Source: Escherichia coli (GTDB lineage Bacteria; Pseudomonadota; Gammaproteobacteria; Enterobacterales; Enterobacteriaceae). From it: DNA of 1,842 nucleotides. Shown piece by piece: positions 1 through 1,735 of this stretch. The stretch lies in the NCBI RefSeq assembly GCF_044324875.1, contig NZ_CP172193.1, one strand, 5' to 3'. How positions within the stretch are numbered: position 1 is the first letter of the stretch; each line of letters starts with the position of its first letter. The position numbers and the translations under genes were made by a program. The notes beneath the pieces are model-generated. The model was not told the origin of the DNA and did no database searches. It saw nothing but the letters and a program-made list of their open reading frames with translations.

Positions 1-113
1 ATACGAAACGTTATTTGCATGTGTATACGCAAACATGTTTGCGTGTGTTGTTTCGTACTGTACGATATAAATTTCGTAAGGTACGAAAGATTGTTGCAGG
101 TAAGGATGCAAGT
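1..113 (+). promoter_or_regulatory. Palindrome-dense leader / operator-like region upstream of ORF1 (possible autoregulatory operator or iteron-like Rep binding sites)
   Basis: Seen directly: 18-bp perfect palindrome acgcaaacatgtttgcgt at 27-44; 13-bp palindrome tcgtac-t-gtacga at 53-65; inverted repeat tttcgta-agg-tacgaaa at 72-88. The half-site TACGAAA / TTTCGTA recurs at 2-8, 51-57, 72-78 and 82-88. A TATAAA-like element lies at 66-71. Function is inferred from position immediately 5' of the ORF1 start. Confidence 0.5.
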
Positions 114-875: not shown

Positions 876-919
876 AAGTGAAATATTTTAAAGAGCCAGC
901 GGCAGGGGGACAATCGGAT

Positions 920-955
920 TCAAATGTTAACATTTGACATCGGATTATCTATCCT
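920..955 (+). promoter_or_regulatory. Candidate sigma70 promoter (-35 TTAACA 927-932, 17-bp spacer, -10 TATCCT 950-955) overlapping an 18-bp perfect palindrome (920-937)
   Basis: Seen directly: tcaaatgttaacatttga at 920-937 is a perfect palindrome. TTAACA and TATCCT are separated by exactly 17 bp. A TTGACA hexamer at 934-939 has no well-spaced -10. The element sits exactly at the AT-rich/GC-rich junction and points into the structured GC-rich block. Promoter activity is inference. Confidence 0.3.
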
Positions 956-1063
956 GCATTGCTCTTTTGCCGCCTCAAAATCCCTTGCGTGTTTTTGCTC
1001 CCCGATCTCCAGAACGACCGAGCCGCCACGGTTCCGGCAGCGCCTTGAGCGCAACCGGAAACC

Positions 1064-1379: not shown

Positions 1380-1447
1380 GAGGTGATCCCGCTCGCCGCA
1401 AGTCGATGACCGAGCGTAGCGAGCGAATCGACGAGGAAGCGGAAGAG
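1380..1447 (+). other. ColE1/pMB1-family conserved origin-proximal segment (region between oriV and bom; possibly the primosome assembly site region)
   Basis: Hand alignment of 1380-1447 (gaggtgatcccgctcgccgcaagtcgatgaccgagcgtagcgagcgaatcgacgaggaagcggaagag) with the pBR322/pUC sequence gagctgataccgctcgccgcagccgaacgaccgagcgcagcgagtcagtgagcgaggaagcggaagag (recalled from memory) gives about 53/68 identities with no gaps. Orientation and distance to the bom homology match ColE1-type plasmids. The primosome-site assignment is inference. Confidence 0.6.
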
Positions 1448-1483
1448 AACCGGAAGCCACATTGAGCACTTACGCACTGATGC

Positions 1484-1508
1484 GGGGTGTCGGGGTGAAG
1501 CCCTGACC
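1484..1508. repeat. Left arm of a 25-bp inverted repeat (23/25 match to the reverse complement of 1711-1735)
   Basis: Seen directly: ggggtgtcggggtgaagccctgacc at 1484-1508 versus the reverse complement of 1711-1735, ggggtgtcggggcgcagccctgacc. Arms are about 200 bp apart and bracket the predicted nic region. Confidence 0.8.
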
Positions 1509-1513
1509 AGGTG

Positions 1514-1551
1514 GTAATCGTATCGGCGTGCGTGCGCGGTCATACGATTAC
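1514..1551. other. Hairpin with 10-bp perfect stem (gtaatcgtat / atacgattac) and 18-nt GC-rich loop, inside the oriT region
   Basis: Seen directly: 1514-1523 is the exact reverse complement of 1542-1551. Lies between the two arms of the 25-bp inverted repeat. Function unknown; possibly an accessory protein binding site or single-strand initiation structure. Confidence 0.4.
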
Positions 1552-1672
1552 ACATCCTGTCCCGATTTCTGAGGCGTTTTAACGGTGAACGGACGGCAAA
1601 AACACGATAGAGCTGTTGAACGTGAAAACCACGAAATCTGGCAAAAATCACGGCTGGCGAGGCTTGCAGAGG

Positions 1673-1735
1673 AGTAAGCCAGTATACACTCCGCTATCGC
1701 TACGTGACTGGGTCAGGGCTGCGCCCCGACACCCC
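1673..1735. other. ColE1/pMB1-type oriT (bom) nic region; predicted nic on the minus strand within CTGG/CTTA (between + strand positions 1678 and 1679)
   Basis: ccagtatacactccgctatcgctacgtgactgggtcagggctgcgccccgacaccc (1679-1734) differs at a single position from the pBR322 bom sequence recalled from memory (complement strand ...tcatggctg... versus ...tcagggctg... here). The preceding taag gives the CTGGCTTA nic octamer on the minus strand. The nic position is recalled from the ColE1 MbeA literature and is approximate. Confidence 0.75.
1711..1735. repeat. Right arm of the 25-bp inverted repeat (partner of 1484-1508); corresponds to the canonical bom inverted-repeat arm
   Basis: Seen directly (see partner feature). 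This arm is the copy that matches the pBR322 bom sequence; the left arm is the extra inverted copy. Confidence 0.8.

Follow-up and report, generated by a model that had tools for sequence, protein, structure and literature searches.

The 1,842-bp stretch of DNA analysed here, referred to as the window, is essentially a complete circular Escherichia coli plasmid of the Col(MG828)/RepL type that carries no relaxase gene. Its 252-bp span between positions 1484 and 1735 is very probably a compact double origin of transfer (oriT), composed of an I-complex oriT and a ColE1-type oriT, each of which would be used in trans. We infer nick positions, nicking and mobilisation from homology, anatomy, covariation and precedent. 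The span is bounded by two inverted copies of a 25-bp element, called the arm in the following. Exactly one copy of the arm occurs in ColE1, beside nic, and exactly one in each I-complex plasmid, beside its own hairpin and nick. The arm is the native distal module of both oriT families, since ColE1 and the I-complex plasmids each carry one. Two oriTs that stand head-to-head and have this 25-bp module in common therefore generate an inverted repeat with 202 nucleotides (nt) between its copies. The repeat is a by-product of two borrowed oriTs, in an arrangement of a known kind that is common in the plasmid family.

An initial annotation, made from the letters alone, had drawn attention to the inverted pair, and the repeat finder reproduced it, with 23 of the 25 positions (92%) complementary. 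Both mismatches, at arm positions 13 and 15, fall in or beside the loop of the small hairpin that the arm itself can form (TGA versus CGC). The best 25-mer inverted match reached 16-20 of 25 positions, and never 23, in 200 dinucleotide-preserving shuffles of the window, and the chance expectation for the arm pattern is 0.00 occurrences. The perfect 10-bp hairpin reported between the arms was recovered as well (1514-1523/1542-1551, with a loop of 18 nt). The repeat does bracket a ColE1-type nic, whose block GTATACTGGCTTA lies on the minus strand between the arms (1675-1687). The statement that the arm stands once beside nic in the ColE1/pBR322 lineage holds for ColE1 itself, with one copy in the 6,647-bp colicin E1 plasmid. 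The loop of the arm (CGCA in ColE1, CGAA in the I type) was tried as a family signature and rejected as a family-specific marker, several ColE1-side arms of relatives carrying CGAA.

The sources of the two halves are apparent from their homologues. When a 281-bp span was searched against the 72,556 plasmids of PLSDB, the matches formed two populations, large conjugative plasmids aligning with the left part and ColE1-type plasmids aligning with the right part. Window positions 1483-1568 match conjugative plasmids of 80-300 kb, and this left module, searched alone, was found in 3,704 plasmid records, 1,919 of them conjugative. In three large plasmids, 14 nt separate the beginning of the match from the nikA start codon, and nikB follows. 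There, nikA is annotated as 'IncI1-type relaxosome accessory protein NikA' and nikB as 'relaxase NikB'; typing assigns these IncI/K-type plasmids to MOBP and MPF_I. This placement near nikA-nikB is the location of the R64-type oriT. The whole 86-nt left unit is 93% identical to the conjugative-plasmid oriT adjoining nikA-nikB, and 85-93% identical across I-complex oriTs. The left module thus combines the features of an I-complex (R64-type) oriT: a nick region (…CATCCTG/T…, the slash marking the nick) 8 nt 3' of a repeat, the proximal repeat itself, a distal 8-bp repeat, and homologues that adjoin nikA-nikB.

The proximal hairpin provides the most detailed evidence on this module. Six oriTs were aligned, namely the left module of the window, IncK-, IncI1- and pESI-like oriTs, and both oriTs of one pBuzz-like plasmid. 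The arm and the nick block CACATCCTGTCCCG (1551-1564) are invariant across the I-complex and pBuzz-like oriTs, and the 8-bp distal stem does not vary in any of the six (6/6). The sequence between arm and nick block is lineage-variable yet always able to form a hairpin. Compensatory changes were found at 7 of the 17 pairs of the proximal hairpin, a covariation that 0 of 500 shuffles reached, and the pairing fell from 95% to 29-49% when the partner was slid by 1-3 columns. Because the hairpin form has been kept by compensatory changes between lineages, the 10-bp hairpin is identified as the proximal inverted repeat of an I-complex oriT. It had been described as a separate element, and is instead the NikA-site repeat of the second oriT. 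The repeat consists of 10 perfect bp with a partial extension, ends at 1551, and is followed by the G of CCTG at 1559; its nick-side arm is one base off that of an IncK-type plasmid. A nick at 1559/1560 of the plus strand is presumed, the placement following the MOBP rule and the nick reported for the R64 oriT by Furuya and Komano (1991). By analogy with R64, the right arm of the proximal repeat (1542-1551) is presumed to be repeat A, to which NikA binds; the R64 oriT core has been described as 'nick region and repeat A' (PMC4743918).

The cassette classes of the plasmid family carry sharply different alleles of the proximal hairpin (GTAATCGTAT, GGCATTTGTC, GGCAAACGG and others; window 1513-1552), while the nick block and both flanks are identical in the family alignment. 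These differences are consistent with a role of the proximal hairpin in setting helper (NikA) specificity and would fit adaptation to different NikA proteins. In comparison with R64, the left module has the same distal hairpin with an 8-bp stem, a proximal repeat and the nick block at the same 8-nt spacing. It differs in the length of the repeat, which is considered below, in the lack of nikA and nikB in cis, and in its closest relative, which is an IncI-gamma/K-typed plasmid and not an R64-type IncI1 plasmid.

The right module corresponds to the bom region of ColE1. Window positions 1675-1734 are identical, at 60 of 60 nt, to positions 4033-4092 of ColE1 (colicin E1 plasmid), including the nic block and the arm. 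The nic CTGG/CTTA, the adjacent conserved region and the hairpin arm of a ColE1-type oriT are all present. In the reference ColE1 sequence NC_001371.1, CTGGCTTA is located at 1469..1462, in agreement with the coordinates at which Varsaki et al. (2003) reportedly mapped the MbeA nic. In the 281-bp search, window positions 1672-1735 match thousands of small ColE1-type plasmids, mostly labelled 'mobilizable', and the module as such occurs in 4,792 plasmid records, again mostly mobilizable. The mbe or mob genes are absent in cis, as no relaxase or MobC-like open reading frame (ORF) is present in the window. The right module is in this respect an orphan bom, as in pBR322, and is still a member of the ColE1-type oriT family. 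ColE1 differs in having a single arm and no I-type module, and the replicon of the window is not of the ColE1 type, only a segment resembling a single-strand initiation (ssi) site and bom being ColE1-like. Mobilisation with MbeA and MbeC supplied in trans is plausible. Between the two predicted nick sites lies a spacer that is conserved within the plasmid family in the alignment; the matches outside the family cover only the two oriT modules. The positions of all elements are collected in Table 1.

Table 1. Coordinates of the oriT elements and of the other features in the 1,842-bp window
Feature	Position	Strand	Details and basis
Left 25-bp arm, distal hairpin module	1484..1508	+	8-bp stem 1489-1496/1500-1507, loop GAA; repeat search and I-complex homology
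Proximal inverted repeat, 10 perfect bp, 18-nt loop	1514..1551	+	Equivalent of the R64 17-bp repeat B/repeat A; covariation
I-complex-type nick block CACATCCTG/TCCCG	1551..1564	+	Predicted nick 1559/1560, 8 nt past the repeat; invariant in aligned oriTs
Spacer between the two predicted nick sites	1565..1674	.	Family alignment; plasmid search
ColE1-type nic region (bom), ending GTATACTGG/CTTA	1675..1710	-	Predicted nick between 1679 and 1678; identity to ColE1
Right 25-bp arm, distal hairpin module of the ColE1-type oriT	1711..1735	-	First base is the sole difference from the ColE1 arm
ColE1-like flank containing GAGGAAGCGGAAGAG	1389..1447	+	83% identical to ColE1 3880-3938
IncX4-type oriT mimic: GGACAATC, palindrome CAAATGTTAACATTTG, then GATTATCTATCCTG/CATTG	908..967	+	Predicted nick 956/957; outside 1484-1735
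Rep gene, RepL-like, 174 aa	114..638	+	Weak Pfam RepL match (E = 2e-4); RepL annotation in a 99% identical record

Read along the window, the elements follow the order arm, hairpin and nick on the plus strand, then nick and arm on the minus strand, with the nicks inside and the arms outside. On the plus strand, the I-complex (IncI1/K/B/O, R64-type, MOBP) oriT would consist of the distal hairpin, the NikA-binding proximal repeat and the nick block ATCCTG/T. On the minus strand, the ColE1-type (MOB-HEN) oriT would consist of the same distal hairpin (the right arm), 32 nt, and the nick CTGG/CTTA. A conjugative I-complex plasmid in the same cell would serve the left oriT through its NikA, NikB and type IV secretion system, and the right oriT would be served by MbeA and MbeC of a co-resident ColE1-type plasmid together with any compatible conjugative helper. 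The choice of helper would also decide the strand, opposite strands being transferred in the two cases. The plasmid is probably able to use two kinds of helper plasmid for its transfer.

A plasmid that matches the window over its full length at 99% identity (NZ_CP070127.1, 1,843 bp, typed Col(MG828)) is found in E. coli FDAARGOS_1292. The other plasmids of this strain include a conjugative IncF plasmid and a colicin E1 plasmid that encodes a MOBP relaxase, so that at least the ColE1 route is available there. Some observations weigh against the double oriT. Three co-resident plasmids of the same strain were checked, and none was an I-complex helper. The proximal repeat has 10 perfect bp versus 17 in R64, and recognition by NikA is therefore assumed. 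Furthermore, the I-type module is dispensable for persistence, since 1,822-bp relatives without it are common. This frequent class lacks window positions 1491-1572, nearly exactly the I-type unit, through an indel of ~82 bp. Its junction reads GGGGCGT, intermediate between the two ends in the window, GGGGTGT (1484-1490) and GAGGCGT (1566-1572), which suggests that a short, imperfect direct repeat was the site of the indel.

Prevalence was counted from records in which a single piece covers at least 80% of the span. The cassette was found in 361 PLSDB records and in a further count of complete genomes in 351 records (329 of 5,426 complete E. coli genomes). The same inverted pair at a spacing of 227-229 bp is thus widespread, and the architecture cannot be called unusual, as the initial annotation had supposed. 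Element order and arm-to-arm spacing are shared by pMG828-1, by 1.5-kb plasmids whose Rep is of a different, helix-turn-helix type, and by other relatives that were sampled; one cassette with one spacing is accordingly associated with two different Rep backbones. MOB-suite labels near-identical members of the family inconsistently, as 'non-mobilizable' or as 'mobilizable', despite the same oriT modules.

Other explanations have been considered for the presence of two arms. It is conceivable, if rather unlikely, that the arms act as crossover points, where recombination flips the interior or swaps whole oriT modules and so creates new helper combinations. The junction expected from an arm-to-arm flip was built and searched in PLSDB, and five records contain it. 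A 1,395-bp Salmonella plasmid has the ssi flank fused through the arm to a ColE1 nic; behind its other arm, the same plasmid carries a divergent I-like oriT (ATCTTG/TCCCG) with a pBuzz-like interior and flank. Both junction types are present in NZ_CP138471.1 (2,967 bp), and arm-bounded cassettes exist in the combinations I+I, I+ColE1 and ColE1+I-variant. However, the eight close relatives sampled are without exception colinear with the window, and the alternative junction occurs in only 5 of several thousand records. One of these five represents the native arrangement, another (NZ_CP019265.1) has been called a likely sequencing artefact, and both junctions of NZ_CP138471.1 lie in a larger inverted duplication that is either real or an artefact of long-read assembly. 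In addition, 25 bp is a marginal length for homologous recombination.

Simple inversion isomers were looked for among the five junction matches and rejected, none of them being a clean flip of the same cassette. In NZ_CP138471.1 and NZ_CP019265.1 the cassette occurs in many copies or as part of larger inverted duplications, which may be real rearrangements at the arms or long-read assembly artefacts. The comparison suggests an occasional exchange of modules in which the arms serve as breakpoints; a simple flip of this particular cassette is not borne out. Of the past inversion or duplication event envisaged at the outset, the duplication has been abandoned, and what stands is the reshuffling of modules at the arms in a few relatives.

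The arms might also be kept complementary for pairing in the transferred strand, forming a panhandle around both nick sites that would hold the 5' and 3' ends for recircularisation. This appears improbable, even though the stem itself is energetically favourable. A 268-nt segment was folded as naked single-stranded DNA for both strands, and duplex energies were calculated with DNA parameters. In both strands the minimum-free-energy fold includes the stem between the arms (-61.6 kcal/mol with z = -5.6, and -52.3 kcal/mol with z = -4.6). The arm-arm duplex amounts to -32.6 kcal/mol versus -3.2 to -6.6 kcal/mol for the local arm hairpins, and when pairs more than 150 nt apart are barred, the energy shifts from -61.6 to -45.8 kcal/mol, a cost of ~16 kcal/mol. 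A pBuzz-like plasmid shows the same geometry, with arms out and nicks in. In contrast, two other dual-oriT plasmids have the opposite geometry, and replicons without a second arm (ColE1, the I-complex plasmids and the 1,822-bp class) conserve the arm to the same degree. The arms are almost invariant, which leaves no arm-arm covariation as a test of pairing, and the termination mechanisms known from R64 use local hairpins.

A large arm-arm stem in single-stranded DNA, as the initial annotation proposed, is physically plausible and thermodynamically favoured in these folds. There is no sign that selection maintains the pairing, because replicons with a single copy conserve the arm just as well, and the idea of a long-range stem under selection was set aside for this reason. 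A cruciform in duplex DNA was rejected on general grounds, given the 202-bp spacer.

It is very unlikely that a relaxase of the CloDF13 (MOBC) kind acts on the arm itself, in which case the window would have two further inverted nick sites. The nic of CloDF13 is reported as GGGTG/GTCGGG (PMC5935869). In the CloDF13 record (9752-9775), it lies at the 5' edge of the hairpin GTCGGGC-GTGA-GCCTGAC, and the arm has the same layout, GGGTG-TCGGGGC-GCA-GCCCTGAC. In both, GGGTG directly precedes a GC-rich stem of 7-8 bp with a short loop. Differences concern the nick itself, which is affected by indels (GGTCGGG versus GTCGGGG), as well as the stem sequence and the remainder of the oriT, which is unrelated. 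The exact CloDF13 nic is absent from the window, and the similarity may reflect common ancestry only.

The same kind of arm module is seen in three oriT families that are served by unrelated relaxases. A more speculative proposal, which at present seems rather unlikely, would make the arm an autonomous, exchangeable module of ColE1-type, I-complex-type and, in diverged form, CloDF13-type oriTs. In this case 'oriT arrays', with three mimics in 1.84 kb, would be evolving in the tiny Col(MG828)/pKL1-like plasmids, and new helper specificities would arise through swaps of the hypervariable hairpin for the accessory protein and through recombination at the conserved arms, to which arm pairing or nicking might add a function.

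The reading offered first, that a recent inverted duplication of the ColE1 bom arm gave rise to the left arm, is the least credible and was rejected: the two arms are 92% identical to each other and those of some relatives differ at one base only, but the left arm belongs to a full I-complex oriT unit, being contiguous with ~60 bases of hairpin and nick block that are absent from ColE1; over its 86 nt this unit shares 93% identity with oriTs of conjugative plasmids in which the arm is native, and the 82-bp indel of the 1,822-bp class covers the whole I-type unit, not the arm alone.

A double oriT on a small plasmid has precedents. The best-known case is pBuzz (Moran and Hall 2019, Plasmid 101:10), which, in the accounts given by citing papers (PMC9282650, PMC11389934, PMC7448864), is a relaxase-less plasmid of ~2 kb with two inversely oriented oriT mimics and is mobilised in trans. 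According to one of these accounts, its oriT region was acquired from a conjugative plasmid (PMC11389934), and a relative with two L/M-like oriTs has also been reported (PMC7448864). The pBuzz-like plasmid pNMEC-O75E (1,983 bp) combines two I-type oriTs that are bounded on either side by the same 25-bp arm, with the nicks facing inwards. The window shares with the pBuzz family the two inversely oriented oriTs on a relaxase-less plasmid of ~2 kb. It differs from the pBuzz-like plasmid in that both oriTs are of the I-complex type there, whereas here an I-complex oriT is combined with a ColE1-type oriT. The replicons are different as well, a ColpVC 'protein rep' in pNMEC-O75E (rolling-circle, as described for pBuzz) and a RepL-like Col(MG828) replicon here. 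Judged by this analogy, the plasmid would work like pBuzz, yet it is not a member of the pBuzz plasmid family.

Two oriTs of different families are also known from one plasmid. In pEC156, F-type and R64-type oriT mimics are both functional in trans and mob genes are absent (PMC4743918). The ColE1-type plasmids pEC156, pKPN2 and pSe-Kan resemble the window in being small and relaxase-less with two oriTs of different families. They differ in that the partner oriT is F-type and not ColE1-type, and in that the oriTs do not form an arm-bounded inverted cassette. An entry named 'oriT_pKL1' has been catalogued in the R64 family (bioRxiv 10.1101/2024.01.30.577996). In our literature search, in which pBuzz itself was known through citing papers, no paper was found that describes this pair of I-complex and ColE1 oriTs.

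Outside the double oriT, the plasmid appears to carry a third oriT mimic, of the IncX4 type, in addition to the I-complex and ColE1-type ones. Window positions 908-967 are 95% identical to an element that is present twice, in inverted orientation, in conjugative IncX4 plasmids of ~33 kb, where one copy lies ~50 bp upstream of taxA-taxC. The element contains a perfect palindrome and a nick-like motif, CTATCCTG/CATTG. The duplicated oriTs of IncX (R6K-type) plasmids thus have a counterpart in the window that differs in being a single copy, located outside the 1484-1735 span and lacking taxA and taxC. All sampled family members have a common frame, GAGCCWGCGGCAGGS…GGACAATC…GATTGTCTATCCTGCATTG with the nick block, and at least four different palindromes occur in its middle (window 895-962). 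The difference between the window and its 99% identical twin falls precisely in this palindrome, and the variant of the twin resembles elements found twice per record in plasmids of 34-47 kb. These palindrome differences point to a swapping of the specificity-determining hairpin.

The ColE1-like flank to the left of the double oriT contains the motif GAGGAAGCGGAAGAG and is probably an n'/PriA primosome-assembly or single-strand initiation site. Its counterpart in ColE1 lies between the replication origin and bom, and thousands of plasmids, small and large, match it. Transfer from the I-type and X4-type oriTs would involve the plus strand, which is also the strand of the motif. Directly upstream of the ssi-like segment, at 1358-1391, CGGGATCACC and GGTGATCCCG form a perfect inverted repeat of 10 bp around a 14-nt loop. 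Window ~1087-1444 is weakly similar (73-82%) to non-coding DNA in plasmids of 24-51 kb; in the one plasmid that was inspected, which is typed IncX4, the matching DNA precedes the replication initiator gene by ~650 bp. Owing to this similarity to IncX4-plasmid DNA, parts of the G+C-rich block may derive from IncX-like backbones.

The coding content of the window is limited. The Rep gene is the only ORF with a Pfam family match, and the 99% identical record NZ_CP070127.1 has one annotated gene only, 'replication/maintenance protein RepL'. Repeated and inverted TTTCGTA…TACGAAA motifs occupy window positions 1-90, directly 5' of the Rep gene (e.g., 51-65 and 72-86; inverted 51-68/71-88), and probably represent a Rep binding/origin or operator region. 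A conserved ORF of 72 aa (657-875) has no family match in Pfam, and five further ORFs of 59-164 aa in the G+C-rich half of the window belong to no NCBIfam family; the NCBIfam search of seven window ORFs gave no match at all. Neither a relaxase, nor a NikA/MobC-type accessory protein, nor a coupling protein is encoded in the window according to the ORF list, NCBIfam and Pfam. An Rfam scan of the window gave a single sub-threshold chance match, and a promoter and terminator scan of 880-1842 placed none within 1484-1735.

According to the summary of a large survey, pOriT plasmids use conjugative or mobilizable helpers 'but not both'. The plasmids of the present family would, unlike this summary, depend on both conjugative and mobilizable helpers, and they occur in ~6% of complete E. 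coli genomes. With the double oriT, a striking inverted repeat is given an ordinary explanation.

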